From a virus, in the IMG/VR virus record IMGVR_UViG_3300027733_002357: a stretch of 64,000 nt of DNA; one strand, 5' to 3'. The position numbers were made by a program, and so were the translations under genes. Of this stretch, positions 20,066-55,085 are shown piece by piece (positions within the stretch are counted from its first letter, which is position 1; the number at the start of each line of letters is the position of its first letter). The notes beneath the pieces were generated by a model, which saw nothing but the letters and a program-made list of their open reading frames with translations, searched no databases and was not told the origin of the DNA.

Positions 20066-20068
20066 AAT

Positions 20069-21223: not shown

Positions 21224-21929
21224 CTACAACGATATACTAAATAAGTATTCATCTGACAAAGGCACCAGCCCTAATGAGCAGGAGAATCTAGCCAATGGAT
21301 ATGGAGATTTATACGAGAGATATTTTAGAGATTATAGGGAGAGCGCTGTAAATATCTGTGATATAGGAATAGACCAGGGAAGATCTCTTTTAGCTAACCA
21401 AGAGTATTTTACTAATGCTACAATCCATGGCGTTGATATAAGCGATAAATCTATTTATAGGACGGAAAGAATTAGAACCTATATGGTAGATCAAGGTAAC
21501 GTAAAACAGCTTGGAGATTTCTTTAGCGAGATGAGATTTAAAGGTATCGATTTTGATATAATAATTGATGATGGATCACATGATGTTGCTCATCAACAAA
21601 TGACATTTGGTAAATTATTCGATCTACTTAAGCCTGGTGGAATTTATATCATAGAGGATATGTGTACTAGTTTTTTTAAGGAGGGTGTAAATCTGTACGG
21701 ATACACACAAACTAGAGAAAAAATGGATAACAATACGGTTAATTTTTTAACTAATAGACCTTTAAGAAGCCCTTGGATAGATTCTGAAAAATTAGACAGG
21801 ATGGATTTTGAAATAGATTATGCAATAGTTTTCGATAAGCTTAATAGGAATATCCCATATTTAGATGTTTTCCCATGTATTAATGATTATCCACCAAGAT
21901 CTATAACATCGATAATTAAAAAGAAATGA
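21207..21929 (+). CDS. class I SAM-dependent methyltransferase
   Basis: 'ICDIGIDQGRS' motif I, 'IIIDDGSHD', 'LKPGGIYIIED'. Confidence 0.5.
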   Translation: MKLMDNYNDILNKYSSDKGTSPNEQENLANGYGDLYERYFRDYRESAVNICDIGIDQGRSLLANQEYFTNATIHGVDISDKSIYRTERIRTYMVDQGNVKQLGDFFSEMRFKGIDFDIIIDDGSHDVAHQQMTFGKLFDLLKPGGIYIIEDMCTSFFKEGVNLYGYTQTREKMDNNTVNFLTNRPLRSPWIDSEKLDRMDFEIDYAIVFDKLNRNIPYLDVFPCINDYPPRSITSIIKKK

Positions 21930-22330
21930 TCAGAGAATTTCGCAGTGATGATAAGGATGGAGTTTTAGGATGCTTAAAAGAAGTTTGGAGCATCACATCA
22001 ATAGATGATGACGTACTCGACAACTATCTTAGAAATAGCAATCTCCTTTATGTTATAGATATCGATGGTGAAATTGCTGGATGCGCCACTTTACATTTAC
22101 AAAAAAAGCTAATAAGAAATGGATCTACTGCAGGATTCATAGAGGATGTTGTTGTAAAAGGAAAGTACAGAAATAATAAATTAGGAGAATCCCTAATTGG
22201 TCATTTAGTAGATAAAGCAAAAGAAAAAGAATGCTATAAAGTTATTCTTTCGTGCTATCCTGAAAGAATTGCTTTTTATGAAAGATGCGGATTTTTCCAA
22301 GAAACAATAACAATGAGAAAACACCTATGA
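21926..22330 (+). CDS. GNAT family N-acetyltransferase
   Basis: GNAT motif A region 'VVVKGKYRNNKLGESLIGHL' and typical length. Confidence 0.55.
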   Translation: MIREFRSDDKDGVLGCLKEVWSITSIDDDVLDNYLRNSNLLYVIDIDGEIAGCATLHLQKKLIRNGSTAGFIEDVVVKGKYRNNKLGESLIGHLVDKAKEKECYKVILSCYPERIAFYERCGFFQETITMRKHL

Positions 22331-23244
22331 GAAGAGTAGCTTTATTTAGCACGTATTGTGATACCGAGGAAAAAGAAAAAGCTTTACTGGATAACTTAAC
22401 TAAAGTTAAGAGCCTAGGATTGGATTCATTTGTTTTGACTATACTTCCATTGTCTAAAAAAATACACGATGCTGCAGACTATGTGATTTATTCTAAAGAA
22501 AATCCAATACCTGACATTAATACTAAGTCTATTGTATCTTGGAGAATATGCGAGAATAACGTGAAGCTTATATCATTTCTCCCAGATTATGGATATCCAA
22601 GTTTGCTACAGTTAAAAAGATTAATAGATTTCTCTTCCACTTTGGATTATGATTACTATTTTACAATGATCTATGATATCATAATTACTCCGGAGATAGA
22701 GAAAGTTCTTACAGAGGGAAGAGAATGTAGCTTTTTTAAAAATAGTAAAGTTGATGAAGTTTTAGGAGGGATATTAACTGCATTCAACGGGGAGAATGCT
22801 AAAAAATTCTCATCTTTATTAACTGAAAAATCTTATTATAAGGATTCACATATAGCGGAGGCTTGGATGGCAAAAGTTAACGATTTAATAGGTGGTACAA
22901 TCGAAGACATATATGCTTCAGATTCTATTAATTTAAACGAGGCACTTCTATCGACAAACCATTCGCCTTTTCCAGATTTTCATTTGTTTATAGTGAAGCA
23001 TAAAAGCCTAAAGCTGTTTTTCTATTCTATTCCCTTCGAAATAAATTTAACTATTAAAACAAATCTTTTCGAGAAAGATATCATGATAGACAAACAGACT
23101 CTAGTTCATCTTCACGATAACGAAAAAGAGATAGAGTACATTAAAATAGTATATAAGAAAGCAGAAATAGATCTTGGATATTATTTTAATATATTAAAGA
23201 AAAGTGAAATAGAAAATTGCTCTGACCACATAGCTTTAACATGA
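22327..23244 (+). CDS. hypothetical protein, paralog of 19142..20065
   Basis: ATGA overlap with the GNAT gene; ~40% identity blocks with the paralog. Confidence 0.5.
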   Translation: MRRVALFSTYCDTEEKEKALLDNLTKVKSLGLDSFVLTILPLSKKIHDAADYVIYSKENPIPDINTKSIVSWRICENNVKLISFLPDYGYPSLLQLKRLIDFSSTLDYDYYFTMIYDIIITPEIEKVLTEGRECSFFKNSKVDEVLGGILTAFNGENAKKFSSLLTEKSYYKDSHIAEAWMAKVNDLIGGTIEDIYASDSINLNEALLSTNHSPFPDFHLFIVKHKSLKLFFYSIPFEINLTIKTNLFEKDIMIDKQTLVHLHDNEKEIEYIKIVYKKAEIDLGYYFNILKKSEIENCSDHIALT

Positions 23245-39893: not shown

Positions 39894-40175
39894 ATGAGAA
39901 AATATATTGTTTTATTTGTCGCTGCTGCACTTTTGATCCTTAGTGGATGTGCAGATAGTCAAAACGTAAATGAGTGCGTTAGCGGTCACTTATATGGATT
40001 CTGGGGAGGTCTATGGCACGGATTAATAGCTCCTTTTGATTTTATAGGAATGCTTATCTGGGATGATGTCTGTGTATATGCCCCTAACAATAACGGAGCA
40101 TGGTACGCATTTGGATTTGTATTAGGAGTCGGTGGATTTGGATTCGGAACATCTAAAGCTAGTTCAAAAAGATGA
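39894..40175 (+). CDS. small lipoprotein
   Basis: Signal peptide with LSGC lipobox; Gly-rich. Confidence 0.45.
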   Translation: MRKYIVLFVAAALLILSGCADSQNVNECVSGHLYGFWGGLWHGLIAPFDFIGMLIWDDVCVYAPNNNGAWYAFGFVLGVGGFGFGTSKASSKR

Positions 40176-40501
40176 GCAAAGGATTTTATCTGATATTTCT
40201 TTCAGTTGCAACAGCAAGGGAGGTAGGGGTTTTACTTGAATTAGACAGCTTTTTAATAGGGATAGTATATTTATTGTTATTGATATATGTTATATTCACT
40301 TATTTGTCTGGTAGAATTCCGGAATTTGTTTGGACTAAGGGATTAAGTATAATAGGTATAACATCATTGGTTTCATTAGTATTAATGGCAATTGGTGGTT
40401 ACACTATAATTTCTCAAAAAATAGAGGCTTGTATATTTTTATATGCGTGGTTTAAATCTTTGAGATATATGGCAGAATGGGAAAATAAAAATTTAGAATA
40501 A
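40172..40501 (+). CDS. membrane protein (3 TM)
   Basis: Hydrophobic helices; overlapping start. Confidence 0.4.
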   Translation: MSKGFYLIFLSVATAREVGVLLELDSFLIGIVYLLLLIYVIFTYLSGRIPEFVWTKGLSIIGITSLVSLVLMAIGGYTIISQKIEACIFLYAWFKSLRYMAEWENKNLE

Positions 40502-41798: not shown

Positions 41799-42118
41799 TA
41801 AAAAAATTTAGATTTAATAAAGAGGAAAATAATAGATGGTTTGTAGATCTTCCTGAATGGGAGGGAGAAAAAGACGATCTTGAAATGGTTCTAGGAGCGG
41901 ATTTACTTTTGGATATCTTATCCGGAAATTCCGATTATTGTTACGTTACATTGGGTGATGAACCATTTGAAGGATGTAACACATTAACTTATGATCATAA
42001 TGAATTTACCACGGGATATTATAACAATGATGCATGGCACGGGCCTTCTACTATTTGGCTTTGTTATGTTACTGAATTTGTCTTTGGAAGATATCCAGAG
42101 AAGATTTATTTCTCGTAG
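41795..42118 (+). CDS. hypothetical protein
   Basis: 107-aa ORF. Confidence 0.35.
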   Translation: MIKKFRFNKEENNRWFVDLPEWEGEKDDLEMVLGADLLLDILSGNSDYCYVTLGDEPFEGCNTLTYDHNEFTTGYYNNDAWHGPSTIWLCYVTEFVFGRYPEKIYFS

Positions 42119-42558
42119 TATTCTATCATCTTCACAGCATTTGATACTAGCCAAGGATCTACTCCAGGTATTTTCATTAGAAAATTAAGCTCGTATTTGT
42201 AGCAAAGAGCCTCTTCCTTATTGGGATCTAGTTTAGCATAAAGCTGCTTGATATAAAGGTGCATTGATTCATGCACCAGAATAGCTGCAATGTTGTAGAT
42301 GTTAGGATTCTTTATATCATTAACTGCTATGGTTATCATCGAATCACCTTCAGTTGTGGAAAATCCCCCGTTCCAATATCCTACGTTCTGACAAGTTTCT
42401 AATAGAACATCATATTTTTCCGGATCATATTTTTGAATGATTGATATTGCGCTATCTACTTTATTCTTCCACCCGTCACCAACATCTGCTATTTTAATCT
42501 GGCCAAATGAATAGGTTAATGAGAAATAGAATAATAGTGATAGCCCTATATTTTTCAT
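42106..42558 (-). CDS. secreted HExxH (zinc-metallopeptidase-like) protein
   Basis: Signal peptide; 'ILVHESMHLY' HExxH motif. Confidence 0.4.
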   Translation of the reverse strand: MKNIGLSLLFYFSLTYSFGQIKIADVGDGWKNKVDSAISIIQKYDPEKYDVLLETCQNVGYWNGGFSTTEGDSMITIAVNDIKNPNIYNIAAILVHESMHLYIKQLYAKLDPNKEEALCYKYELNFLMKIPGVDPWLVSNAVKMIEYYEK

Positions 42559-43007
42559 AGTTTTATTGCTGCTTCGTGAATTGCTTTTTTAAGAGCTGAA
42601 GATACAGTCATTTTTTCGAAAGGAATTGATCCTTCCTGGACCTCGATCATAATAGCTCTTATTTCAGTATCTGATTCACCTATTCCTTCGTACTTATTAC
42701 CTTTATAGTGCAACCTAACACCTACTTGGGTTATAGTGTTAGTCTTTTCTATACCAACAACTCTTATAGTTGTTTTAGGTAATCCGAAGTAATAAATCTC
42801 AACACCGACAGGAGATCCGTCATTGGAGAGACAGAATTTTTGTGATAGCTCCTCTTCTACTATTTGTTTTATACCGAATCTTATATCTCTAGATCCTAAT
42901 TCTCTAAGTTTTGCTGTAACGTAAACAGTGTCTACTTTTACACAATCCTGTGCTTGTGCTGTTATACCAAATAGTATAAGTCCAAAAAATATGATAAATC
43001 TTTTCAT
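42555..43007 (-). CDS. secreted hypothetical protein (candidate nuclease inhibitor)
   Basis: Signal peptide (..ITAQAQD); sits directly downstream of the secreted nuclease with an ATGA-type overlap. Confidence 0.35.
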   Translation of the reverse strand: MKRFIIFFGLILFGITAQAQDCVKVDTVYVTAKLRELGSRDIRFGIKQIVEEELSQKFCLSNDGSPVGVEIYYFGLPKTTIRVVGIEKTNTITQVGVRLHYKGNKYEGIGESDTEIRAIMIEVQEGSIPFEKMTVSSALKKAIHEAAIKL

Positions 43008-43597
43008 TATTTAATAATATATTTAGTGTAGTCAGTCGATGCTGGTTTTTCGTTTTTGAAATAATATTTTTCAACCTTATTTCCGTATTTTATAGTTTTA
43101 ATATATCCATCCGGTATAGTTGCACCTGTTGGTAATACCACAGATTTACCTGAGAAAATACATCTAATTTCAACAGTAACAACTTTATTTATTGATGCTA
43201 ATTCTCTTTCTCTAACCTCAAGTAATCTCCAAGTTGTTCTATTTAGATTTTCTTGTTGTAACGAACAGTTCAAATATGTGAATGTCTTATATAAAGATTC
43301 TTTAGTGCAATTAAAGTCTGCTGCTGGAGCTAAATGTCCTTTATCGTAAGGGTTATTTTCATAATCTTTATTGTCTGAAGTTAATATCGAATCACAAACA
43401 TAAAAATCCATTCCAGTCCTTGGAACAGTTCCATTTGGGCATTGTACCGTGTATCTAATAAATTTAGGCTGTTGTAATTTTTCAGAGTATACGATTTCAA
43501 ACATATTAGTTTTAACGTAGATTGAATCCCTTAGATTTTTTTGTGATAAACTAAGTAATGGTAGTGTTATTAATAGGGATAGTAATATATTTTTCAT
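43007..43597 (-). CDS. secreted DNA/RNA non-specific endonuclease (NucA/Serratia nuclease family)
   Basis: Signal peptide; 'DKGHLAPAADF' aligns with the DRGH catalytic motif; the downstream 'ESLYKTFTYLNCSLQQENLNRTTWRLLEVRERELA' segment aligns with the Serratia nuclease metal-ligand region. Confidence 0.65.
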   Translation of the reverse strand: MKNILLSLLITLPLLSLSQKNLRDSIYVKTNMFEIVYSEKLQQPKFIRYTVQCPNGTVPRTGMDFYVCDSILTSDNKDYENNPYDKGHLAPAADFNCTKESLYKTFTYLNCSLQQENLNRTTWRLLEVRERELASINKVVTVEIRCIFSGKSVVLPTGATIPDGYIKTIKYGNKVEKYYFKNEKPASTDYTKYIIK

Positions 43598-45306
43598 TAG
43601 TCTGATTTTCCTGTTTTTATTATATAAAATACCGAAGACCCACCGGCTGTCGGATTAGTTAATGCTATACTTTGTGATCCTGGATATGTAGGTACTAGAT
43701 TAGCAACTGCTGAATTTATTAATGTCCATTCCTGCTGTGTCAGAATCCTATAGTTAGGTACTCCAGATGGCCAAGAATTACCATTGATTTTTTTGTATAT
43801 CAAGTATATATCTGAAATTGTCATTGCTGAATTGACGTTTGCATCCATTCTATAGTAATCAATCGGAACGAAATTCTTATTTAGAACCTTATTTGTAAAG
43901 AATGTTATATCTTGACTATTTGGTTGATTGATAGTTAAATTGTCGATAACAACCTGAAAATCATAAACTGCAATATCTAATGAGGTTGTGATAGAAAAAA
44001 CACCAGATGAGTTAGTTGTATAAGTTTGAAATAAAGTATACGATCCTGAAGCTTTTGGTTTATAGAGCAATTTAACTGATATGCCTTGAACAGCGACAGC
44101 TTTAGAGTTGTATATAGTTCCTGAATAAGTAAATGGAATAGGATAATTTACAGTGGCAACTACAGCAGTTCTACTAGAACTAACACACCCACTAGTTGTG
44201 TTTCTCGCTTGAGCATAATAGGTTGTTGCGCTTGAAATACTAGGTGTAGTATAAGTAGTAACGCCTAATCCTCCCGATAAAACATTTCCTCCTATAGAAT
44301 TAGCATACCAATCAACAGTAGATCCTGAGGGTGGTGTTGCGGATAAAGATACCGTTCCTGCTAGCATTCTGCTTCCATTAACTCCGGTAGGAGCAGCTGG
44401 TGCATTTGCAGCAGTACACGATATTTGGTGTGTAACAAATCCTGTAAAGAAATCTGTAAAAGTTTGATTTGCAGGATCGGTCCATGTACCGTACTCGATA
44501 ACATAAGCGCAATTGTAATTGTTTGGTAAATCGTTCCATTGGGATCCGTTCCACTTTGTAACAGCATAATGTTCACCTCCAGAATTATTAGGTTCCCCAG
44601 CTGCCCAGTTATTATATTGCCCTGCTATGTTACCTGCCGTTTGACCGTTTGCAGTTTTAATTAATGTTCCGTTTTCCGGACCAGCGTCTATTCTCCAATA
44701 ACCTTCTTGAGCAACATCCGAGAGTGCAAACCATATGTTTGTTTGAGGTACGTTATTGTATATAAACAAATCCTCGTCCGAAGATGTTATAGTAACTAAG
44801 TAACCTGCTTGTCCTTTAAATGCTGTAGCTGCAGCGGCTGTTTTAGCAGCATTATAAAAAGCAGTAGTTGCTATTGGCCTATAAAAATGCCCATTTGACG
44901 GAAGATAAAAGTATCCAACAGGATTCTCTGTAGCAGTTACTGCAATATAGACATTACCTGGGGCTGATCCTGTATTTAATCTTAGCGAACCCAACACTGT
45001 ATTAACATTAGCTAATGTTCCTGTAAAACTTATTCTTGTAAAGTTTGATGCAAGTGCGTATCCCGTGCTAGCAGTTACCCCTGTAGTTGTATTTAGCCTT
45101 AATGTTGTTCCTGATGGGGGATTAACCAATCCTATTGTGATTAGTAGAGTTGAAGAGGTATTAAATCCAGTTACCGAGAATCCACTTACAATTTGGTTAG
45201 ATGTATTTTGCGGGTATGATGATGCACTTGGTGCCACAACACTCTGTGCACTTAAAGAAGTCCAGGTGAATAATATTATTGCCCAATTACAAATCTTGTA
45301 CCACAT
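43597..45306 (-). CDS. secreted C-type lectin domain protein (EPN/WND motifs) with beta-sandwich flanks
   Basis: Signal peptide after an internal Met; CTLD signature 'WFALSDVAQEGYWRIDAG...NNWAAGEPNNSGGEHYAVTKWNGSQWNDLPNNYNCAYVIEY'. Confidence 0.6.
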   Translation of the reverse strand: MWYKICNWAIILFTWTSLSAQSVVAPSASSYPQNTSNQIVSGFSVTGFNTSSTLLITIGLVNPPSGTTLRLNTTTGVTASTGYALASNFTRISFTGTLANVNTVLGSLRLNTGSAPGNVYIAVTATENPVGYFYLPSNGHFYRPIATTAFYNAAKTAAAATAFKGQAGYLVTITSSDEDLFIYNNVPQTNIWFALSDVAQEGYWRIDAGPENGTLIKTANGQTAGNIAGQYNNWAAGEPNNSGGEHYAVTKWNGSQWNDLPNNYNCAYVIEYGTWTDPANQTFTDFFTGFVTHQISCTAANAPAAPTGVNGSRMLAGTVSLSATPPSGSTVDWYANSIGGNVLSGGLGVTTYTTPSISSATTYYAQARNTTSGCVSSSRTAVVATVNYPIPFTYSGTIYNSKAVAVQGISVKLLYKPKASGSYTLFQTYTTNSSGVFSITTSLDIAVYDFQVVIDNLTINQPNSQDITFFTNKVLNKNFVPIDYYRMDANVNSAMTISDIYLIYKKINGNSWPSGVPNYRILTQQEWTLINSAVANLVPTYPGSQSIALTNPTAGGSSVFYIIKTGKSD

Positions 45307-47090
45307 GTTATAGTATAATTTAAAGCACTTGTTTTCAAATCCCAAGCTCCTCCGCCATTTATGTTAAATTTAAATTTCTTTGATATTTTAATATTTGTAC
45401 CTATGCTAGGAAGCATCACGTATGGTGATTTCAAAACAACATCATTATAATAACTCACATAAGGAGCATAAACAAATAGGTTCATTAATTTTATATCAAA
45501 TCTTTTACCAACTCTAAAATCGTACATAGCTCCTACAATTAATGCAGTACCTAAAAATGATTCTCTATATACGCTTCCGTAAGAAACAGTACCCATGTAT
45601 AACAATTTAAGATTTTTAGGCTTTTTTAAATTAAACATCTGCCCAGCTGCAAATGTTCCGTATAGAGATTTATTACCTTCAAAACCTATTGTTAAAGTAC
45701 CTGAGGCCAATATTATAGATTTAGGTCTAATCCAAGCATAAAATGCTGTTATGTTAGGTCCTTTTAATGCTGATGTGTAATCTACAAGAGCACCATAGCT
45801 TCTTTTTCCGTCCCATCTCATTGATGTATATCCTCCTGTTGCTTTAGCACCAGTTCTAACCTCGGAGTTCTTAAAATTAAATCCTATAAAATCAGCACTT
45901 CCAACAACAGTTGGTTTTCCACCTTCCTTGCTAGTTGGGGTTGATTTAATTGTAGTAGAAGCACCTCCTGTTATATTTGTTTTGCCTTGTCCTTGTTCAG
46001 ATTGCGTGTTTGTCTGTCCTTGTTCTGTTTGCCCGTTAGAATTATTATTCCCTGAACCATTCCCACTATTCCCAGTGTTACCATTATTCCCATTGGAACC
46101 ATTATTACCAGATTCTCCATTTCCTGTTGATTGATTATTTGTTTGTTCACCTGTCCCTTGACTTCCAGGCTGCGTACTTGATTGACCGTTAGATTGTGAT
46201 CCCTGTTGTGTAGTACTATTTCCTGTGGTTTGTGCTGTTCCGGAGGTACCCCCACCGTTAGTATTTCCTGTACCGTTTTGCGTATTATTTCCTGACGCTG
46301 TTCCGGTAGTTCCGTTGGATGATTCATTAGATGTTCCAGTAGTTCCCGTGGATGCTCCAGTAGTTCCTGCAGATGATCCATTAGATGTCACAGTAGTTCC
46401 ATTGGTTGTTCCAGTAGCTCCAGTGGATGCTCCAGTATTATTGTTTACCGGCGTGACCACCTGTGTATTTCCGTTCGTATTTGATACGCTAGGAGATGAA
46501 CTTTCTCCACCCCCTTGTGTAGATCCACCTGCATTTCCTTGATTAGACCCCGAGTTTTCTTGTCCCTGCGAGCTATTCTGATTTGATCCAGAATTGGTTG
46601 AATTTCCTTGGCTATTGTTATTAGATCCTTCCCCGTTGTTTTGACTGTTACCTTTATTCTTCTTAGATCCCTCACTGTTTCCCGAATTAGATACAGAGCT
46701 TACTGCTCCCCCTAATATATTTGTAGATCCTGCAATATCTGATATTGTCGATAATGAATTTAATATTCCTATTACATTTAATGCAGTACTTTGTGTTATG
46801 TTTACTGCTGTTCCTAATCCTACAATCTCTGAACATGGACTATTCGTACCATATTGCGAAAATATGTTACTTGCCCAAGACTCAAATACGCCATTATTAA
46901 AATCGTTATAGCTAAATGACCCAATTTCCCCATAATATCCCACAGTGACGTTTCCGTTGATTGGAACTATAATTGTTTTATCATTACCTGTACATGGATC
47001 TGTATAGGTATAGTTGTAAGTCTGAGCGCTTATTTTATAAGAACCAAACAGACAAACAAATAGGAGTAATATAATAGCATCAAGTCTCAA
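45276..47090 (-). CDS. secreted Q/N/G/S/T-rich protein with C-terminal predicted beta-barrel domain
   Basis: Signal peptide; ~300-aa low-complexity region (GNSQNNGEGSNNNSQGNSTNSGSNQNSSQG...); C-terminal ~200 aa with alternating hydrophobic pattern. Confidence 0.45.
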   Translation of the reverse strand: MRLDAIILLLFVCLFGSYKISAQTYNYTYTDPCTGNDKTIIVPINGNVTVGYYGEIGSFSYNDFNNGVFESWASNIFSQYGTNSPCSEIVGLGTAVNITQSTALNVIGILNSLSTISDIAGSTNILGGAVSSVSNSGNSEGSKKNKGNSQNNGEGSNNNSQGNSTNSGSNQNSSQGQENSGSNQGNAGGSTQGGGESSSPSVSNTNGNTQVVTPVNNNTGASTGATGTTNGTTVTSNGSSAGTTGASTGTTGTSNESSNGTTGTASGNNTQNGTGNTNGGGTSGTAQTTGNSTTQQGSQSNGQSSTQPGSQGTGEQTNNQSTGNGESGNNGSNGNNGNTGNSGNGSGNNNSNGQTEQGQTNTQSEQGQGKTNITGGASTTIKSTPTSKEGGKPTVVGSADFIGFNFKNSEVRTGAKATGGYTSMRWDGKRSYGALVDYTSALKGPNITAFYAWIRPKSIILASGTLTIGFEGNKSLYGTFAAGQMFNLKKPKNLKLLYMGTVSYGSVYRESFLGTALIVGAMYDFRVGKRFDIKLMNLFVYAPYVSYYNDVVLKSPYVMLPSIGTNIKISKKFKFNINGGGAWDLKTSALNYTITCGTRFVIGQ

Positions 47091-47833
47091 TTTTTAAATA
47101 CGCCTTTTGTAATTAGTCTGCTTACCACCCTTGACGATGCAGTTTCTAAAGCTTTTTTGGTAGATATACCAATAGTTGATTGGTTAAATTTGACATCATC
47201 TGAGATATCACCTAAAATATTTGATGTTTTTACTGTGCTTGCTTCCCCTAATCCAGATCCTACAATTACTTGACTTGTTTCAGCGTCTACAAATTTTATT
47301 TGTAATCCTAATCTTGTTGTTTGTGTGGTTGTTTGTTGCCCATTAATCTTAACAACCTCATCTTCAGAAACACTAAAGTCATATACTTCGATGTATACAA
47401 AATATTTGGCTAGTATTACATTCCCTTTAACGTCTATTTTATTAACTGATATACCTTTATCCGAAGCCTTATCCTGAGCAATCATTCTTTGTTTGATATC
47501 TTCTTTCTCCTCTGTAAATATGAATCTACCAGTATACTCTAGATATTCTATAACTATATTTGTTACACCTAAACCTACTCTTTTGTCTTTAAGCTCCGGA
47601 TATAATTCATATAATTCTTCATTTATACCGATTTTTAAAAGCTGTATAGGAACTTGTATTGTATCTGTATAATCAGCAACATCATTGATAGATTGTTTTT
47701 TCTCAAACTCCGCTTGATATTGTTCGGTTTTTACAGAGCCAATGCCCCCGCCATTATTCTGAGGGGGCTGGGCCTGTAAAGTTTTACAACCGAATAAGCT
47801 TAATATAGATATTATGATTATTAGATTTTTCAT
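47087..47833 (-). CDS. CsgG-like outer-membrane lipoprotein
   Basis: Lipobox 'SLFGC' after an internal Met; 'LGLQIKFVDAETSQVIVGSGLGEAS' resembles the CsgG 'LRVVNVSTGEILSS' region; length ~250 aa. Confidence 0.4.
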   Translation of the reverse strand: MKNLIIIISILSLFGCKTLQAQPPQNNGGGIGSVKTEQYQAEFEKKQSINDVADYTDTIQVPIQLLKIGINEELYELYPELKDKRVGLGVTNIVIEYLEYTGRFIFTEEKEDIKQRMIAQDKASDKGISVNKIDVKGNVILAKYFVYIEVYDFSVSEDEVVKINGQQTTTQTTRLGLQIKFVDAETSQVIVGSGLGEASTVKTSNILGDISDDVKFNQSTIGISTKKALETASSRVVSRLITKGVFKN

Positions 47834-47835
47834 TT

Positions 47836-48495
47836 TTATTCTTCTATTTGGCTTCTTAGTAATCCGCATTCTTGGCATTCTTCGAAACCATCTCCATCTG
47901 AGTCTCCCCAAACGTGATCACAGTTTCTGTGTTCGAAATATTCATCGATGTCTCCATCTCCGTCAGTATCGTAACCATCGTTTACACCGTCGCCATCTTC
48001 ATCGACTTCAGCTTTTTCAAATTCTTCTACGATAGGTTCTTCTACTATAGATTCCTCTACGATATGTTCTTCTACTATAGGTTCTTCTACTATAGGCTCC
48101 TCTTTGTAAACTTCGTCTACGACACTAGTTTTTTTTTCGGCGGAATAAGATTCATCAGCTACATTGGAAAGTGTTACACCATCTTCCTCGTCAACTTTTT
48201 GAATTAACATTTTATCTCTATCTTCTGAGTTGAACCAGTAATCTACAACTTTATTTAAGTTACCTACGAATGCTCCTAATAAGATTAATAGCATTTCTTT
48301 CCAATCTTCTCCGATTGTTTTACCTAAGAATACACCAGCATTAATACCTAAGATGATAAGTGTAAATAATCCTAATACAATTGCTGTGATTCTCCATCTA
48401 TTTGCTTGCATTTGCTGAAGCATATAGTAGAATCTATTTTTATCTTCTACTTTCACGTAATCTGTTTTACTGCTAAAGAATTTTTTCATTGACAT
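47836..48495 (-). CDS. membrane protein with acidic (EEPIV)n repeats and DxDxDG calcium-binding-like motifs
   Basis: Two TM helices; 'EEPIVEEPIVEEHIVEESIVEEPIVEE'; 'DEDGDGVNDGYDTDGDGDIDE...DSDGDG'. Confidence 0.5.
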   Translation of the reverse strand: MSMKKFFSSKTDYVKVEDKNRFYYMLQQMQANRWRITAIVLGLFTLIILGINAGVFLGKTIGEDWKEMLLILLGAFVGNLNKVVDYWFNSEDRDKMLIQKVDEEDGVTLSNVADESYSAEKKTSVVDEVYKEEPIVEEPIVEEHIVEESIVEEPIVEEFEKAEVDEDGDGVNDGYDTDGDGDIDEYFEHRNCDHVWGDSDGDGFEECQECGLLRSQIEE

Positions 48496-48518
48496 TTTTA
48501 TATCTTATTTTATTTTTT

Positions 48519-48857
48519 TTACCAAGATTCCTCTTCCTCTTTTTTAGGTTTAACAGGCTCTTGTGTTGCTGCAGGTTTTTCAATAACTCTTTCGTGTATA
48601 ATTGTATTACCTCCGCCATTTTCAGTCTTTTGTTTATTTTCCTGATTCTGCTCAACGTTAATTGTAATAGGTGCTTGTCCTCCAGTTTGTTCGGTTTTAG
48701 TCTCCTCTGAAGGTTCTTCACTACCACCACCAAACATAGTAGTACTTAACCATACTCCTCCCCCTGCAATTACTGTAGTTAGTGTTCCTATGATTGTCTT
48801 TTTTAATCCTGACCAAGATCCCTCGTTGGCCTCCGGTGCATTTGTTTCTTCGCTCAT
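48519..48857 (-). CDS. small single-pass membrane protein
   Basis: One TM (IIGTLTTVIAGGGVWL), E/K-rich tail. Confidence 0.4.
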   Translation of the reverse strand: MSEETNAPEANEGSWSGLKKTIIGTLTTVIAGGGVWLSTTMFGGGSEEPSEETKTEQTGGQAPITINVEQNQENKQKTENGGGNTIIHERVIEKPAATQEPVKPKKEEEESW

Positions 48858-48866
48858 ATTTTTATC

Positions 48867-50798
48867 TTATTTTATTTTAGCTAACTTTTCCACTATGGTT
48901 TTTCCGCCCTCTGTAGATAGAGTTACGAAATATAATCCTGATTGTAATTTACCAAGATCAGTATAGTAAGAAAATTGTCCGTTTGGTACTTGACCGGTTA
49001 ATATTGTAGCTACCTTTCTTCCTTGTAAATCTGATACGTATAATGTAGCATTTGACGTTTCAGATAGACTGAATGTTATTGTAACATCTTTCTCAAATGG
49101 GTTGGGATAAACTATCATAGAATTTGCGTCTATTAATTCCCCATTACTTATTTTTAATACCTGAAGTATTCCATTTGTCGGAGTTAATGTTAAGTCTTTA
49201 GAATTTGCTGCATTTCCTGCAAATTTTCTAGTAGTGTATAAAGGACTCTCCTCCCATTGGTTTTGCGGTTGTAGTGCTACGAATTGTAATGTTACTACGT
49301 CGTCTCCATTTTTTAAAGTATTTTGACTGTTAGTAACATCATATCCCCCCCAATCTATTTCTCCGTCATTTGCGTTAATATAAGTTAACCATTTCATTGC
49401 GGCAGATGATGAATAAACCCCCTTGAATGAAAGTAAATCCTCGTTATATTTTAATCCAAATTGTAGTGAGTTTAGTTCGATACCGTTAGTTAATACTTTA
49501 ACCGGTATATTTACTAAGTTACCCTCTTGAACTGATAAGTGAGGAACGTTAACTTCTATTGAAGAAGTAGGAAAATCATATTCTACTTTAGTATCAATTA
49601 CATTGTAGATCTGGTTTTCTAATCCTGGTGCAGGTCCAACCAATACTTCGATTGGAGTTACACGAGCCATATGATAACCTGTACCGTTAGCATCTCCTGG
49701 TACAACCACGTAGTAAACAACTGAATCAGGTTGCCCTGGTAAGATATCAAATGTAAAGTTAGTTGCTCCAGTAATTGTTGAAGTGTAGTTAGTTGAAGAA
49801 GCGTTGATTGTGTTGTATTCTGATTGTGTAAAGAATTTAACGTCTTTAGTGTTATTAGGCCATGCTGCGAATCTTCCTGAGATTCTACCAAATACACCGT
49901 ATGCGTCAGTGATTGTTACGTTATCTGATTCGTTAACATCTGCTGTATAATAATCAAATCCTGACATTGTACCGTTGCCTAATACCCATTGGTTGATTAA
50001 TTGAGCATCTGCAGTTGAAATAACGTTACCTACTGCCATTGAATCACCCTGTATTGCTAATCTTACGTCCCAATAAGTAGTATCTAATGGAACAGATATA
50101 GCAAAGTCCCCGTTTATATCTGTAACGTATGTTGAATGCTGTGACCATGTGTTACCGCCAGCTGGTCTTGTTTGTAAAGCTAATGTTAAATTCTTAGCTC
50201 CTGATCCAGTTACGTTGGCAAATGTTCCATGATAATCAAAGTTTTGAAATACGAAGTTACCACCGTAATTATGTAAACCTAGAGTTGTATCTGCTCCTTC
50301 CTGGGTAGCTGCATATTGTTGGAAGGTATTAGCTGCTGGTACAACTGACCAAGCTAATGGCGTAATAGATGCTAAGTTGTTAAATACTGACGAAGCAGCG
50401 TGAGTAAAAGTAATCTGAAATCTCTCACCGTCAGGTAATGTATACGTGGAGCTTGATCCAGTATAAACTAAGGTCATAGTAATGTAACCGTTTGCAGGAT
50501 TGGTTATGTACTGGAAATCTAAGTTAGTAGGAGATCCTAGAAGAGATACTGTAGCATTGGTAAATGCTATTTTATCGTAGAATACTCTAAATTGAACACC
50601 CGTATACTTTGTAAGCGTAGTGTTTTTAGAAGTAATCTTTGCAGTGGTAATTCCCTGTGCAGTTGTACCGACTGTGTAGTTAGTGTCGATTATGGCCCAG
50701 ATACCCGGTGAAGGTGCTGGTGGTCCAGATTGTGAAAATAAGTCAAGAGTTAGCGTCATAAAAAACGCTAAAACACCTAACATTCTTAGTGTCCTCAT
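48867..50798 (-). CDS. secreted protein with T9SS type-A C-terminal sorting domain
   Basis: Signal peptide; C-terminal 'VYPNPFEKDVTITFSLSETSNATLYVSDLQGRKVATIL...SGLYFVTLSTEGGKTIVEKLAKIK' matches the Por-secretion CTD pattern. Confidence 0.65.
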   Translation of the reverse strand: MRTLRMLGVLAFFMTLTLDLFSQSGPPAPSPGIWAIIDTNYTVGTTAQGITTAKITSKNTTLTKYTGVQFRVFYDKIAFTNATVSLLGSPTNLDFQYITNPANGYITMTLVYTGSSSTYTLPDGERFQITFTHAASSVFNNLASITPLAWSVVPAANTFQQYAATQEGADTTLGLHNYGGNFVFQNFDYHGTFANVTGSGAKNLTLALQTRPAGGNTWSQHSTYVTDINGDFAISVPLDTTYWDVRLAIQGDSMAVGNVISTADAQLINQWVLGNGTMSGFDYYTADVNESDNVTITDAYGVFGRISGRFAAWPNNTKDVKFFTQSEYNTINASSTNYTSTITGATNFTFDILPGQPDSVVYYVVVPGDANGTGYHMARVTPIEVLVGPAPGLENQIYNVIDTKVEYDFPTSSIEVNVPHLSVQEGNLVNIPVKVLTNGIELNSLQFGLKYNEDLLSFKGVYSSSAAMKWLTYINANDGEIDWGGYDVTNSQNTLKNGDDVVTLQFVALQPQNQWEESPLYTTRKFAGNAANSKDLTLTPTNGILQVLKISNGELIDANSMIVYPNPFEKDVTITFSLSETSNATLYVSDLQGRKVATILTGQVPNGQFSYYTDLGKLQSGLYFVTLSTEGGKTIVEKLAKIK

Positions 50799-50950
50799 TT
50801 TTTTAGTTATTTAATTGGTTGTCTATCTATATATTTTTTTATGCCAAAAAAATGTTGTGATATATGTAAAAATTTAAAAATATGTTTAAATAATTAAAAT
50901 GAGCTAAATGAATAAAATGAATAAAATACTTAAAATGAAAGAATTAAAAA

Positions 50951-50980
50951 GGGTCAAGGTGGTTGCGAATTCCTTGACCC
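50951..50980 (-). terminator. GC-rich stem-loop (GGGTCAAGG / CCTTGACCC) with T5 on the minus strand
   Basis: 9-bp perfect stem, 12-nt loop, A-run on plus = T-run on minus. Confidence 0.35.
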
Positions 50981-51078
50981 TTAGATGATACTTGCGTAAC
51001 ATCACGGTCCTAAGCCGTGTAAGATAGAAATTTTTTAGTTCTTAGATAGTATAAATCTTATATTATATATCACAAATC

Positions 51079-51255
51079 ATGGTGGAAAAAATAGAAATAC
51101 CTCAGGGAAGAAAATTAGAGAAAGATAGATTAGAATTATATGAACTATTTAGAAAAAAACATCCAGGGGGAAACAAAGAAATGCAGAAGAAGATGTGTTT
51201 ACAGATAGCAGACGAAAGAATTAAGGTATATAAGGAGATATTTCAAGAAAAATAG
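51079..51255 (+). CDS. hypothetical 58-aa protein (below the ORF-track cutoff)
   Basis: ATG ORF MVEKIEIPQGRK...EIFQEK in an otherwise empty 500-bp gap. Confidence 0.25.
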   Translation: MVEKIEIPQGRKLEKDRLELYELFRKKHPGGNKEMQKKMCLQIADERIKVYKEIFQEK

Positions 51256-51262
51256 AATTTTC

Positions 51263-51295
51263 TTTTTTTTGTTCAAATATAAATTTCTACATTTG
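51263..51295 (+). promoter_or_regulatory. promoter variant (T8, 17 nt ending TTTC, TACATTTG)
   Basis: Sequence pattern 5 nt upstream of the ATG at 51300. Confidence 0.5.
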
Positions 51296-51299
51296 TTAT

Positions 51300-51554
51300 A
51301 TGAAAAAATCTTTCCTAATATTATCTTTGATTTCTCTATCATTCTTACAATCTTGTTTAGAAGTTAAGAAAAAGGAAGAAATCATAAAATGCGTAGTTAC
51401 CTCCTGTGAGGAGATTCACCCCATATCTGTACATGACGATATAAATCGTCCCCTTGGATATAGATTACAAACATCTTGTGGAAGATCCTTTAGAAGTAAG
51501 ATTAAATATGAAGTTGGTGACACTATAGGCGTTACTAGGATTAGCTATCGATAG
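51300..51554 (+). CDS. small outer-membrane lipoprotein (o-spanin-like)
   Basis: Signal peptide with 'FLQSC' lipobox; 84 aa; adjacent to the endolysin. Confidence 0.45.
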   Translation: MKKSFLILSLISLSFLQSCLEVKKKEEIIKCVVTSCEEIHPISVHDDINRPLGYRLQTSCGRSFRSKIKYEVGDTIGVTRISYR

Positions 51555-51596
51555 TTTTATCTTAAAATGGGAATATATAATTAAAAATATATTCCT

Positions 51597-52439
51597 ATGT
51601 TACTTAAAAATGGATCTAAAGGAGAAGATGTAAAAAAACTCCAAGAAAAATTAGGACTGGCCGCAGATGGTTCTTTCGGTCCTGGTACAGAATCAAAAGT
51701 TAAAGAGTGGCAATCAGCTAACGGATTAACAGCAGATGGTATTGTTGGTGATGGTACTTGGTCTAAAATGTTCGCCTCAGCACCAGTTGCACCGACAGCA
51801 GCACCAGCCTCAGCAGCACCAGTTGCTATTCCTCCTTCTGCTTTCAAGTTGGAAAATTTAAAGGGGCATGTTCCTGATGCAGTTCTTGCACAGATTCCTG
51901 ATACAGCAGCTAAATTTAACATTACAAATACTTTAAGACTTGCTCACTTCTTAGCACAGTGTGGACACGAGTCTGGAGGTTTTAAAGCAGTTTCTGAAAA
52001 TCTTAACTACTCTGCTGACGGTCTTAAAAAGATCTTCCCTAAATATTTCCCAGGAAATCTTAACGAGTCTTATGCAAGACAACCAGAGAAAATTGCTTCT
52101 AGAGTTTATGGAAGTAGAATGGGTAACGGTGACGAAGCTTCTAAGGAAGGTTTCAAATTTAGAGGTAGAGGTTATATCCAATTAACTGGTAAATCTAACT
52201 ATGCTTCTTTTGATAAATTCGTAGATGATGATATTCTAGGAAATCCTGATTTAGTTGCTACTAAATACCCTTTAATGTCTGCAGCATTCTTCTTTAATAA
52301 CAATAGTCTTTGGTCTATTTGTGATAAAGGAGCAGATGATGCTACAGTTACAGCAGTAACAAAAAGAGTAAACGGTGGAACTATTGGATTGCCCGATAGA
52401 ATCAAGCACTTTAAGGAGTACTACAATTTGCTTAAGTAA
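51597..52439 (+). CDS. endolysin: PG_binding_1 domain plus GH19 (chitinase-like) catalytic domain
   Basis: N-terminal 'LAADGSFGPGTESKVKEWQSANGLTADGIVG'; catalytic 'LAHFLAQCGHESGGF' and 'FRGRGYIQLTGKSNY' GH19 motifs. Confidence 0.75.
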   Translation: MLLKNGSKGEDVKKLQEKLGLAADGSFGPGTESKVKEWQSANGLTADGIVGDGTWSKMFASAPVAPTAAPASAAPVAIPPSAFKLENLKGHVPDAVLAQIPDTAAKFNITNTLRLAHFLAQCGHESGGFKAVSENLNYSADGLKKIFPKYFPGNLNESYARQPEKIASRVYGSRMGNGDEASKEGFKFRGRGYIQLTGKSNYASFDKFVDDDILGNPDLVATKYPLMSAAFFFNNNSLWSICDKGADDATVTAVTKRVNGGTIGLPDRIKHFKEYYNLLK

Positions 52440-52441
52440 TC

Positions 52442-52729
52442 ATGGAGGCTAAGAACCAAAACCAGGTGAGTGGATTTTTCGACGTTTTTTTATCAAAGCT
52501 TAAGGAGCAATCGTTTGTGATTCTCCTTATGCTTGGTGTTATCTATTATCAGAATAGATTAATGGAGGAAAGAGTATCGTTTTGGCAAAAGCAATATGAA
52601 GAAAAAGAAGCTTATATTAAAAAAACTACAGAAAGCGATAAGCAAATTCTGTTGAATAGAATAAACTATCTTCAAGATCAAAGGGATAAATTCGTGGAGA
52701 GTACAATTGAAGAAGAAAAAGCAAAATAA
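52442..52729 (+). CDS. TM plus coiled-coil protein (i-spanin/holin-like)
   Basis: Single TM (SFVILLMLGVIYY) followed by a coiled-coil region; immediately after the endolysin. Confidence 0.4.
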   Translation: MEAKNQNQVSGFFDVFLSKLKEQSFVILLMLGVIYYQNRLMEERVSFWQKQYEEKEAYIKKTTESDKQILLNRINYLQDQRDKFVESTIEEEKAK

Positions 52730-52745
52730 AGAGAAAAAGAAAAAG

Positions 52746-53867
52746 ATGAACGAAGAAGTAGAAACAGGAGCAAGCGCATCTACAAACGGAAGTGCGGCTA
52801 CTCAAACAGGAAATGAAAATGTAGGAGCAAGTGCAGATGCAAGCTATGATGCTTCAGCAGAAGCACACGCAAGTGCAGAAGCAGGTATCGATGGTACTAT
52901 GGCTCACGCAAGTGCAGAAGCAGGTGTAAGTGCTGAAGTAAGTGCAGAAGCAAATGCAGAAGCTCACGCAAGCCAAGATTTAGGTGGTGGAGTAAGTGCT
53001 GAAGCAGAAGCTGATGTTCACGCAGAAGCACACGCAAGCGCAGAGGCAAGTGCGGAAGCACACGCAGAAGCAGGATGGGACGGATCTGATGCTAAGATTG
53101 AAGCAGGTGCAGAAGTTAGCGCTAGAGTTGAAGTTGAAGCAAGTGCAGAAGCTCACGCTGAAGCAGGACTTGATACTCCACTAGGTGAGGTTAAAGTTGA
53201 AGCTGATGCTGAAGGACATGCTGGAGCTTACGCTGAAGCTCACGCTGGAGTGGAAGGACATGCGAGCGTAGGCGAACATGGTGTTGATGTAGGAGGTGGT
53301 GCTATGGCTGGTGCTGGTGCTGGTGTAGAAGCTGGCGGTAAAGCTGGTGTAGATACTCCATTAGGAGGAGCGGAAGCAAGCGGAGAAGTAGGAGCTAGTG
53401 TAGGATTACAAGTTGGTGCAGAAGGCGAAGCACACGCTACATATAACGACGGAGAAGTAAGCGTTGGTATTAGCGGCGAAGCTGCTTTACTTGTTGGCTT
53501 AGATGCTGATGTTAATGTGGATCTTGATCTTAATCCAGCAATAGATCTAGCTGAAAATGGTGTAGATGAAGCTAAAAAATTAGCAGATCAAGCTGCTGAA
53601 CAAGCTGCTGAAGCAGATAGACTAGCAAAAGAAGCTGCTGCTGCTACACAAAAAGCTGCTGATGATGCTGCTAGAGAAACTGAAAGATTAGCTAACGAAG
53701 CTGCTGCTGCTACACAAAAAGCTGCAGATGATGCTGCTAGAGAAGCTGAGAGATTAGCTAACGAAGCTGCCAATACTGCTAAGGACGTAGGTAATGATAT
53801 AGATAAAGGCTTTAAAGATACCGGTAAATCAATAGACAAAGGATTTAAGAAAGCTTTTAAGTGGTAA
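52746..53867 (+). CDS. Ala/Glu/His-rich repeat protein (AEAHASAEA)n with C-terminal 23-aa tandem repeats
   Basis: Repeats 'AEAHASAEAG/SAEAHAEAG'; C-terminal 'AAAATQKAADDAARE.ERLANE' x2. Confidence 0.45.
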   Translation: MNEEVETGASASTNGSAATQTGNENVGASADASYDASAEAHASAEAGIDGTMAHASAEAGVSAEVSAEANAEAHASQDLGGGVSAEAEADVHAEAHASAEASAEAHAEAGWDGSDAKIEAGAEVSARVEVEASAEAHAEAGLDTPLGEVKVEADAEGHAGAYAEAHAGVEGHASVGEHGVDVGGGAMAGAGAGVEAGGKAGVDTPLGGAEASGEVGASVGLQVGAEGEAHATYNDGEVSVGISGEAALLVGLDADVNVDLDLNPAIDLAENGVDEAKKLADQAAEQAAEADRLAKEAAAATQKAADDAARETERLANEAAAATQKAADDAAREAERLANEAANTAKDVGNDIDKGFKDTGKSIDKGFKKAFKW

Positions 53868-54485: not shown

Positions 54486-55085
54486 ATGTACACAAGAGAA
54501 CAAATTGAAGGTGCTATTAAAGCTAAAGGTTATGTCTATTTTGAAGACGCTAACAACAAAGGATTTGATGTTAACATTATTGGGATCCGAAATTCTTCTA
54601 CCGGACAGAATGTTACTAATGCTTTTGATGATCTATTAACTATATCATACAAGGATGAAACTGGAGCTTGGAAATATCACGAATGGCCAGCTACAACTGA
54701 TCCAGGAAAGAAAGGGGTTTTAGAATATCATAACGCAGCTGGTGTTGCTAGATTGGTAGAGGGACAATATAGAGGATCTCATACAATTAGATTACACCAA
54801 GGTAAATATGAAGCATTAGGTCAAGCTAAAAACGTTAAAGTTTATAGAGACGCTAACAAAGACCTAAATTATGACGAGAATAAAATTCAAGAGGGTGTTT
54901 TTGGTATCAATATTCATAAAGCTGGTGCAGATTCTACTTATGTTGAAAACTGGTCAGAAGGATGTCAGGTATTTAAAAAATCCGCTGATTTTGAAGAGTT
55001 TATGAAAATTTGTAGAAAATCAAAAGATTTACACGGTAATTCTTTTACTTATACTTTAATTGAATCTACGGATATTAAAGCTTAA
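54486..55085 (+). CDS. hypothetical protein, possibly L,D-transpeptidase (YkuD)-like
   Basis: 'GINIHKAG....SEGCQVF' loosely resembles the IHGT...SHGC(I/V)R catalytic motif. Confidence 0.3.
   Translation: MYTREQIEGAIKAKGYVYFEDANNKGFDVNIIGIRNSSTGQNVTNAFDDLLTISYKDETGAWKYHEWPATTDPGKKGVLEYHNAAGVARLVEGQYRGSHTIRLHQGKYEALGQAKNVKVYRDANKDLNYDENKIQEGVFGINIHKAGADSTYVENWSEGCQVFKKSADFEEFMKICRKSKDLHGNSFTYTLIESTDIKA

Follow-up and report, generated by a model that had tools for sequence, protein, structure and literature searches.

What does a phage gain from a block of nine genes whose products all appear to be bound for the cell envelope? This question is raised by a 64,000-nucleotide stretch of viral DNA (IMG/VR record IMGVR_UViG_3300027733_002357; the whole of this stretch is called the window below), in which nine consecutive open reading frames (ORFs), named O9 to O1 in the order of transcription, occupy the minus strand at 42106-50798 with spacings of 23 nt or less or with overlaps. 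An initial interpretation made without database searches, referred to here as the sequence-only reading, had described nine tightly packed genes, apparently of one operon and in a viral genome, all encoding exported or membrane proteins and together seeming to serve secretion or cell-surface remodelling. All nine ORFs were confirmed; seven products begin with a Sec signal peptide, and the other two are membrane proteins (O8 with one helix, O7 with two). The block is a real, widespread and previously undescribed phage envelope module, and no paper on it was found in the literature. Our preferred reading, to which we assign a probability of roughly 0.4, is that an outer-membrane complex and binding proteins displayed by a type IX secretion system (T9SS) remodel the surface of an infected, T9SS-bearing host of the Flavobacterium type, rather than taking part in virion assembly or canonical lysis. 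The nine genes are:

48867-50798, minus strand: O9, secreted protein of 643 amino acids (aa), core gene
48519-48857, minus strand: O8, 112 aa, one membrane helix near the N-terminus, core gene
47836-48495, minus strand: O7, two membrane helices and a long acidic C-terminal tail
47087-47833, minus strand: O6, exported protein of 248 aa with the lipobox LFGC in this copy, core gene and the most conserved of the module
45276-47090, minus strand: O5, 604 aa with a signal peptide, core gene
43597-45306, minus strand: O4, secreted multidomain protein, accessory gene
43007-43597, minus strand: O3, secreted DNA/RNA non-specific endonuclease of the NucA/EndoG type, accessory gene
42555-43007, minus strand: O2, secreted protein of 150 aa, core gene
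42106-42558, minus strand: O1, secreted HExxH protein of 150 aa, gluzincin-like, frequent accessory gene

The genes are tightly packed from one end of the block to the other. Gaps of 9 nt and 23 nt separate O9 from O8 and O8 from O7, respectively, and the O7/O6 junction (TAAAAATG) has a 2-nt spacer (47836/47833). O6 and O5 overlap in a TTGA (47087-47090), and O5 and O4 overlap by 31 nt given an O4 start at the ATG at 45306, which is probably the real one, as the ATG at 47833 probably is for O6. The O4/O3 and O3/O2 junctions are 1-nt overlaps at 43597 and 43007, and O2 and O1 share a 4-nt, ATGA-type overlap (42555-42558). By its packing and overlaps the block thus looks like the single transcription unit that had been proposed, and the nine genes are probably co-transcribed. 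The arrangement is far beyond chance: dozens of viral contigs, independent of one another, show these genes in the identical order and on one strand.

Conservation was assessed across 80 viral IMG/VR loci obtained from a scan with O6 (contigs of up to 373 kb), with counts made over 81 loci and gene presence counted in the 49 loci that cover the whole region. O6 was present in all 49, O9, O8 and O2 in 46 each, and O5 in 43; O1 was found in 35, a separate O4-like gene in 24 and O3 in 16. The five core genes O9, O8, O6, O5 and O2 occurred together, collinear and on one strand, in 43 of the 49 fully covered loci, so that the order of the core is kept throughout a large phage clade. The module is accordingly composed of a core (O9, O8, a slot for a two-helix protein, O6, O5 and O2) and of lineage-specific secreted accessories (O4, O3 and O1), so that the unit seen by the sequence-only reading holds for the core but is not one fixed set of nine genes. 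Three distant phages (L070, L073 and L075) retain O8, a two-helix protein, O6 and O5, and in L073 and L075 the O2-like and O9-like genes have been relocated upstream.

The closest cultured relative is Flavobacterium phage vB_FspM_immuto (NC_055915), a 160-kb T4-like virulent myovirus from the Baltic whose host is a Flavobacterium. Its genes gp012-gp019 are homologous to O3, O4, O9 (as two ORFs), O8, O6, O5 and O2. Only 16 window ORFs had any protein similarity to the whole immuto genome, and among these O6 was the most similar (70% identity to gp017), followed by O8 (66% to gp016, over the N-terminal half), an endolysin (63%) and O3 (56% to gp012, which also has a signal peptide); O2 was 35% identical to gp019 and a capsid-like protein 27% identical to its counterpart. 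Since O6 and O8, with O3 in fourth place, lead so short a list, these values suggest that the module travels as a cassette between divergent phages or else that the constraint on it is unusually strong. At the nucleotide level, the region matched none of the cultured phages searched.

The viral setting of the block was also supported by its flanks, which carry phage genes on both sides:

left flank: virion and tail-fibre-like genes, and a Dda-like helicase
right flank: endolysin, tRNA nucleotidyltransferase, and a major-head-like protein

These flanks, the 80 IMG/VR contigs and the cultured virulent myovirus bear on the explanation that the proteins are virion components, or that the region is host chromosome beside a prophage. 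Ig-like and beta-sandwich domains of the kinds also seen on phage particles do occur in O9 and O4; yet a Sec signal peptide is found on seven of the nine, O9 closes with a T9SS sorting domain and none of the nine had a structural PHROG match. No tRNA gene was detected in the 64-kb window (ARAGORN) and no integrase among the window ORFs scanned. The C-terminal domain of O5 was found in 3 of 185,579 species genomes, all three on contigs of metagenome-assembled genomes (MAGs), two of them of about 250 kb; barring these three contigs, the O5 family is absent from bacterial genomes. Both forms of this explanation are therefore extremely improbable. Two of the MAG contigs are assigned to Bacteroidetes/Flavobacteriaceae (L082, CAIWBA010000291.1, 254 kb; L084, CBFHJJ010000001.1, 248 kb), and the contigs with O5 homologs are probably phage (jumbo-phage) genomes that were binned into bacterial MAGs. 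A comparison of the nine proteins with defence-system models (PADLOC) gave no match.

The proposed display at the cell surface concerns O9, which had been called a T9SS cargo protein. It consists of a signal peptide (MRTLRMLGVLAFFMTLTLDLFSQ, visible in the sequence), an N-terminal beta domain, a beta-sandwich with a dockerin-like unit (residues ~187-371), a cohesin-like region (~414-543) and a C-terminal sorting domain:

48876-49124, minus strand: T9SS type-A sorting domain of O9, residues 559-641

This domain matched Por_Secre_tail (PF18962, 6.3e-12) and TIGR04183 (1.9e-11), and its scores of 46.1 bits (cut-off 27) and 43.8 bits (cut-off 23) exceed both cut-offs, which together with the Sec signal qualifies O9 as type-A cargo and upholds the earlier call. 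A hidden Markov model of the family C-terminus scored 109 bits at the O9 sorting domain and matched no other window ORF, and the PNP, G and Y motif positions were invariant in 23 diverse O9 homologs. The Cohesin (7.2e-5; 23.4 bits, cut-off 24.1) and Dockerin_1 (0.0028; 18.3 bits, cut-off 22.9) matches both fell just under the Pfam cut-offs. A profile of the O9 family searched against PDB sequences retrieved a dockerin (4uyp_B, 1.1e-3), a T9SS sorting domain (8glj_D, 0.02) and a cohesin (6kg8_A, 0.07). The genus Flavobacterium possesses a T9SS. In the distant phages L070, L073 and L075 the C-terminal sorting domain is missing from the O9-like protein, which is followed by small lipoproteins (113-130 aa) with C-termini resembling T9SS sorting domains (L073 8989-9381, L075 8938-9306, L070 7436-8155); in these three phages the sorting domain may have split off as a separate gene.

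T9SS cargo encoded by phages has been reported before, in the 'Cryophage' (PMC7468147) and as BACON/T9SS ORFs of crAss-like phages (PMC6949934). Like O9, these are proteins of Bacteroidota phages with a type-A sorting domain that are presumably exported by the host T9SS. However, they are single, variable genes for enzymes or binding proteins (endoglucanase, GH39, PA14), whereas O9 is the conserved first gene of a multi-gene module and has cohesin-like and dockerin-like domains.

The accessory protein O4 had been described as an EPN C-type lectin, and this assignment stands. It contains a C-type lectin domain (~44500-44817), an Ig_7 domain (~44146-44400; 7.3e-16) and a C-terminal unit homologous to residues 187-371 of O9. 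The lectin domain matched Lectin_C above the cut-off in a sub-region scan (4.3e-6; 27.9 bits against 22.6), and the EPN (GEPNN) and WND motifs are visible in the sequence; both are also carried by its immuto homolog gp013, whose annotation is C-type lectin. Over its last 180 residues, O4 aligned with O9 187-371 at 5e-16 (BLASTP), so that the lectin and the T9SS cargo share a module, and judging from this homology the common unit could mediate docking.

The other two accessories are candidate enzymes, both of which had been recognized by the sequence-only reading. O3 matched Endonuclease_NS well above the cut-off (1.9e-17; 64.1 bits against 23) as well as the nuclease family phrog_14168 (2.5e-15), and has the catalytic D(R/K)GH motif in the form DKGHLAP, visible in the sequence, which confirms the assignment to the NucA-type nucleases. 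O1 has the motif HESMH, and its family alignment conserves HESxH followed by EE some 20 residues on; family-level matches were weak (DA1-like 0.022, mod_HExxH 0.0043, phrog_1365 5e-4).

The most conserved protein of the core is O6, which is also abundant, with homologs in 6283 clusters at 90% identity, the best 120 of which are 76-100% identical to it. O6 had been labelled a CsgG-like lipoprotein, and some copies carry the name CsgG from JGI. It had no direct Pfam match, and its profile retrieved only 252 clusters from 1.8 billion representative proteins. Among 35 diverged full-length relatives, however, 15 matched Pfam CsgG (PF03783; best 1.9e-17) and 8 matched LpoB, and some bacterial relatives exceeded the CsgG cut-off over nearly the full profile. 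By transitive homology, because relatives found with the O6 profile match CsgG, O6 is thus a divergent CsgG-family member, linked to the family via bacterial intermediates only. An E. coli CsgG sequence scored only 15 bits against a wide O6 profile, which is a lead only; the O6, wide O6 and O5 C-domain profiles gave no match against PDB sequences. Comparison with CsgG and LpoB had been suggested at the outset and was fruitful for the relatives but not for O6 itself. The lipoprotein part of the label fits the LFGC lipobox of this copy but not the family at large, and a canonical channel is doubtful, as detailed below.

O2, which had been noted as a small secreted protein, is a short paralog of O6. 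The two families aligned with a probability of 96.6-97.7% (hhalign; E 2.4e-12), in a manner indicating that O2 has the CsgG fold minus a middle insertion.

The third core component, O5, had been described as a Q/N/G/S-rich protein with a C-terminal beta-barrel and is divided into three regions:

47024-46686, minus strand: N-domain, ~110 aa, conserved, with two invariant Cys
46685-45966, minus strand: hypervariable linker, G/N/S/T/Q making up 87% of residues
45965-45279, minus strand: C-domain, ~230 aa, conserved and beta-rich, with an outer-membrane-protein-like C-terminal signal

The C-domain has a pI of 9.9 and alternating hydrophobicity, and most relatives end in RMLL, KLTL or KIMF, which resembles a barrel assembly signal. 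The earlier description therefore holds for the composition of the linker and for the beta-rich C-domain, while the barrel is predicted from the sequence pattern. The linker differs about two-fold or more in length among close relatives and is G/E/K/D-rich rather than N/Q-rich in a distant lineage (L092); such variation in length and composition is the behaviour of a spacer rather than of an amyloid core. O5 had no match in Pfam or among PDB sequences. Type Va autotransporters were considered for their similar passenger-linker-beta layout and were set aside, as there was no PF03797 match and no confident model.

Two small membrane proteins complete the core. The description of O8 as a small transmembrane protein was confirmed by its single membrane helix, and O8 is inferred to lie in the inner membrane, with a periplasmic tail that is of low complexity, charged and terminated by Trp in all 56 distinct homologs. 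O7, which had been described as an acidic-repeat membrane protein, does have five PIVEE-type repeats (a 15-nt tandem repeat, 48022-48096) and three DxDGDG motifs in its tail, in addition to a Cys/His cluster; by the positive-inside rule, the tail is more likely cytoplasmic. The slot between O8 and O6 was occupied by O7 in 28 of the 81 loci and by a different 94-aa two-helix protein with an acidic tail in 36, with both present in one. No homology was detected between these two proteins. As judged by the searches made, O2, O5, O8 and O7 appear to belong to no described family.

Bacterial relatives of O6 provide a further view of the core. The nearest of these (E down to 5e-29) are lipoproteins from unrelated, partly high-GC organisms. 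At all five loci long enough to judge (L086-L090), the O6-like gene adjoins another one that is matched by the O2 profile as well as by the O6 profile, and in three of the five an outer-membrane protein lies near the pair (orphan proteins of ~400 aa in L087 and L089, and an outer-membrane-like protein of 314 aa in L090). These pairs with an outer-membrane protein imply that a trio of two CsgG-fold proteins and an outer-membrane protein predates the phage module. A peptidase-MA HExxH gene is located nearby in L090, a further likeness to the module. Unlike the module, the bacterial operons have no T9SS cargo, their outer-membrane protein shows no detectable homology to the O5 C-domain, and their neighbours include caspase, TIR, nSTAND and transglutaminase genes. 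The neighbours observed in L087 (1234-5671), L089 (375-7995) and L090 (3813-10470) comprise caspase (Peptidase_C14), TIR, nSTAND/WD40, SIR2, transglutaminase-TPR and peptidase-MA genes, and the bacterial loci look like an uncharacterised envelope system in conflict-system-like neighbourhoods.

Taken as a mechanism, the preferred reading of surface remodelling would proceed as follows. The C-terminal domain of O5 would insert into the outer membrane as a beta-barrel, and the CsgG-fold pair O6 and O2 would assemble with it on the periplasmic face; this assembly is proposed because it resembles barrel-plus-lipoprotein machines and mirrors the bacterial operons of paired paralogs with an outer-membrane protein. 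O8, with its invariant C-terminal Trp, and O7 or its two-helix substitute may connect or regulate the complex from the inner membrane, and the long flexible linker of O5 would present or position its N-domain. O9, a cohesin-/dockerin-like scaffold, would be exported by the host T9SS for display on the cell surface, and the accessory lectin, nuclease and HExxH protease would act extracellularly or in the periplasm. The net effect could be adhesion or aggregation, or receptor masking and the exclusion of other phages. In known machines such as CsgG, PelB-PelC and LptD-LptE, an outer-membrane barrel is likewise combined with small alpha/beta lipoproteins of similar fold; unlike LptD-LptE, however, the barrel region of O5 (~230 aa) is too small for an LptD-style plug and no exported polymer was identified. 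The original idea of a secretion or surface-remodelling system is thus plausible, with remodelling as the part that we prefer; nothing in the results demonstrates a secretion system as such.

A more specific version holds that O8, the two-helix protein, O6, O5 and O2 form an undescribed envelope apparatus, with a CsgG-fold ring or pair and a small barrel with a tethered domain linked to the inner membrane, which would be derived from a bacterial paired-lipoprotein system, captured and passed as a cassette between large Flavobacteriia phages and combined with hijacking of the T9SS. This version is tentative and, as a whole, rather unlikely. Membership of O5, O6, O7, O8 or O2 in the T9SS machinery itself (PorP/SprF, PorK/L/M/N, PorV) was considered and rejected, as no Pfam or NCBIfam match was found; the resemblance to PorP-K-L-M-N is one of topology classes only (barrel, lipoprotein, two-helix, single-helix and periplasmic protein).

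Several observations weigh against surface remodelling by such a complex. The two AlphaFold models had low confidence (pLDDT 49.5 and 34.6) and fold searches were all non-significant, with LptE, CsgG, FlgT and PelB among the weak matches, so that sequence patterns and analogy are the basis for the barrel, the ring and the complex. Of 59 distinct O6 homologs, 35 had a lipobox-like Cys and the remainder a signal-peptidase-I-type site, and the O6 segment that aligns with the first membrane hairpin of CsgG is polar, with an invariant DFSVSEDE (acidic SEDE); for these reasons both the outer-membrane location of O6 and channel formation are uncertain. Conservation as high as that of O6 is seldom seen in arms-race proteins of adhesion or exclusion. 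Furthermore, O4 has no T9SS sorting domain, which leaves its route to the surface unexplained. Last, endolysin genes are frequent neighbours of the module: in 39 of the 81 loci the flanking DNA contains a homolog of the window endolysin, usually just upstream of the module, and this gene has the module's direction and stands immediately ahead of the whole block in L053 and of O8 in L070; in 26 loci the gene next upstream of O9, on its strand, is a second endolysin-like one (phrog_33083).

The features of O6 listed above also bear on a curli-like (type VIII) system, in which O6 would be a true CsgG channel that exports O5 or another substrate to form an amyloid-like matrix aggregating the cells. 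This would agree with the place of O6 in the CsgG family, with the CsgG name of some copies and with the prion-like composition of the O5 linker, and pelagiphages are known to encode CsgG-CsgF-CsgA/B modules, for which aggregation or superinfection exclusion has been proposed (PMC9599517). No Pfam or NCBIfam match to curlin repeats (CsgA/CsgB), CsgE or CsgF was found in any of the nine proteins, however, and the spacer-like behaviour of the linker, the membrane-anchor-like domain in which O5 itself ends, the unconserved lipobox and the acidic hairpin segment all argue against such a channel, which makes curli-type export very improbable. The suggested comparison with curli subunits and PorP/SprF likewise returned no similarity (Pfam and NCBIfam, with diverged O5 C-domains scanned singly). 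Assignment of the module to the curli family was accordingly rejected, given the lipobox count and the lack of curlin, CsgE and CsgF matches. The pelagiphage modules are nevertheless the nearest parallel, as both are conserved, collinear envelope modules of lytic marine or freshwater phages that include a CsgG-family protein, are abundant in metagenomes and have possibly been exchanged between lineages. Unlike them, the module described here is found with Bacteroidota hosts and has no CsgF, CsgA/B repeats, FecR, kinase or cyclase partner; O6 is a distant CsgG relative, and its partners are a CsgG-fold paralog, a tethered barrel-like protein, inner-membrane proteins and T9SS cargo. With these modules and with the phage-encoded T9SS cargo the block shares the principle that a phage supplies envelope or secretion genes and makes use of a secretion system of its host, yet it is a member of neither group.

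The LpoB matches of 8 of the 35 diverged O6 relatives raise the idea of cell-wall or envelope-integrity control, with O6 and O2 as LpoB-like regulators and the N-domain of an outer-membrane-tethered O5 reaching through the peptidoglycan to inner-membrane targets. Peptidoglycan synthesis or hydrolysis would thereby be tuned during a long infection, for example to keep the cell intact, block division or guard against lysis from without. LpoA and LpoB combine anchoring in the outer membrane with a long disordered linker and a globular domain, a layout similar to that of O5, and peptidoglycan hydrolases are recurrent neighbours of the module. The CsgG matches are stronger, though, and cover more of the profile than those to LpoB, no interaction partner is known, and the T9SS cargo, lectin and nuclease would be left unexplained, so that we consider control of the cell wall quite unlikely.

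The frequent adjacency of endolysins, a point missed in the sequence-only reading, points towards lysis. The main rival to surface remodelling, and a serious one although we judge it unlikely, is an accessory apparatus that would serve lysis or egress at the Bacteroidota envelope. O7 or its substitute would act as holin or antiholin, and O8 would be i-spanin-like and reach O6, O2 and O5; together they would breach the outer membrane, or time its breach, after endolysin action, while the nuclease, lectin and protease free the virions. O7 and its substitute do have the size and topology of class II holins and a charged tail, the topology of O8 is of the i-spanin type, and no recognisable spanins are annotated in these phages. 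The window, however, also contains what appears to be a canonical lysis cassette, on the strand opposite to the module:

51079-53867, plus strand: apparent canonical lysis cassette
51300-51554, plus strand: small lipoprotein of the cassette
51597-52439, plus strand: endolysin (phrog_181, 7.5e-64), divergent from O9 and outside the module
52442-52729, plus strand: one-helix protein of the cassette with a coiled-coil-like region
52707-53867, plus strand: Ala/Glu-rich repeat protein of the cassette, 36% identical to immuto gp188

The corresponding cassette of immuto is gp191-gp188, with an annotated endolysin and holin (gp188 adjoins the holin), which matches window 51597-53867; gp191, the counterpart of the window endolysin, is 30 kb from the module. 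Moreover, immuto has O8, O6 and O5 with neither O7 nor the alternative two-helix protein, none of the nine proteins had a lysis PHROG match, and the low-complexity tail of O8 is not an evident coiled coil. O6, at 248 aa and with its unconserved lipobox, is conserved far beyond usual spanins, and T9SS cargo with cohesin-like domains has no obvious role in lysis. In comparison with phage lysis cassettes in general, the module often adjoins an endolysin and shares a two-helix protein whose tail is charged, a protein of the inner membrane whose tail reaches into the periplasm, and a partner in the outer membrane or periplasm, but it is larger and more conserved than spanins, coexists with a separate cassette and includes secreted binding proteins and enzymes foreign to lysis. 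By its products the block does not fit a holin/spanin cassette, there being no lysis PHROG match, no small o-spanin lipoprotein and no evident coiled-coil i-spanin among them. In two loci (L011 and L012), homologs of the genes at 52442-52729 and 52707-53867 are found inside the module, between O3 and O2. A further window gene (54486-55085, plus strand) encodes a 199-aa protein without a signal peptide that matched phrog_33083 (2.9e-12) and has an H...SxGC motif recalling L,D-transpeptidase-type enzymes.

Between O9 and these genes lies a 280-nt divergent intergenic region, in which a perfect 9-bp stem (GGGTCAAGG...CCTTGACCC) is followed by a T-run (site within 50860-50985). The same region has AT-rich 9/18-nt tandem repeats (50860-50939) and no recognisable promoter consensus. 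Sigma-70-like promoter sites did not exceed their frequency in shuffled sequence, the -33/-7 promoter motif of Bacteroidota occurred at chance level only, and no clear shared motif was found upstream of O9 across related loci.

Elsewhere in the window, a sugar-modification gene cluster (18489-23244, plus strand) includes an aminotransferase (phrog_3139) that resembles a WecE-like gene in the large glycosyltransferase cluster of immuto; this cluster could be linked to surface remodelling. Envelope-directed genes outside the module encode a 93-aa lipoprotein (LSGC lipobox) and a 109-aa multi-helix membrane protein (39894-40501, plus strand), and a 625-aa protein that matched the lipoprotein-annotated phrog_200 at 3.9e-21 (59278-61155, minus strand). 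A phage tRNA nucleotidyltransferase (55445-56197, plus strand; phrog_24229, 3.8e-59) is present despite the lack of ARAGORN tRNA genes in the window.

Flavobacteriia play a major part in breaking down algal organic matter, and they have large phages that are abundant. Public metagenomes contain over 6000 clusters (90% identity) of O6 alone. The module would be the second phage envelope module based on a CsgG-family protein, mechanistically different from the pelagiphage curli modules that came before it, and the first to be coupled to T9SS cargo. Beyond phages, it draws attention to a bacterial system, as yet uncharacterised, in which CsgG-like lipoproteins are paired. Because the module is carried by a cultured phage and host pair, vB_FspM_immuto and Flavobacterium sp. 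LMO8, these proposals are directly testable. As the block is better conserved than the capsid and is devoted to the envelope, it likely serves a central, unstudied step of infection, be it remodelling, exclusion, aggregation or egress.

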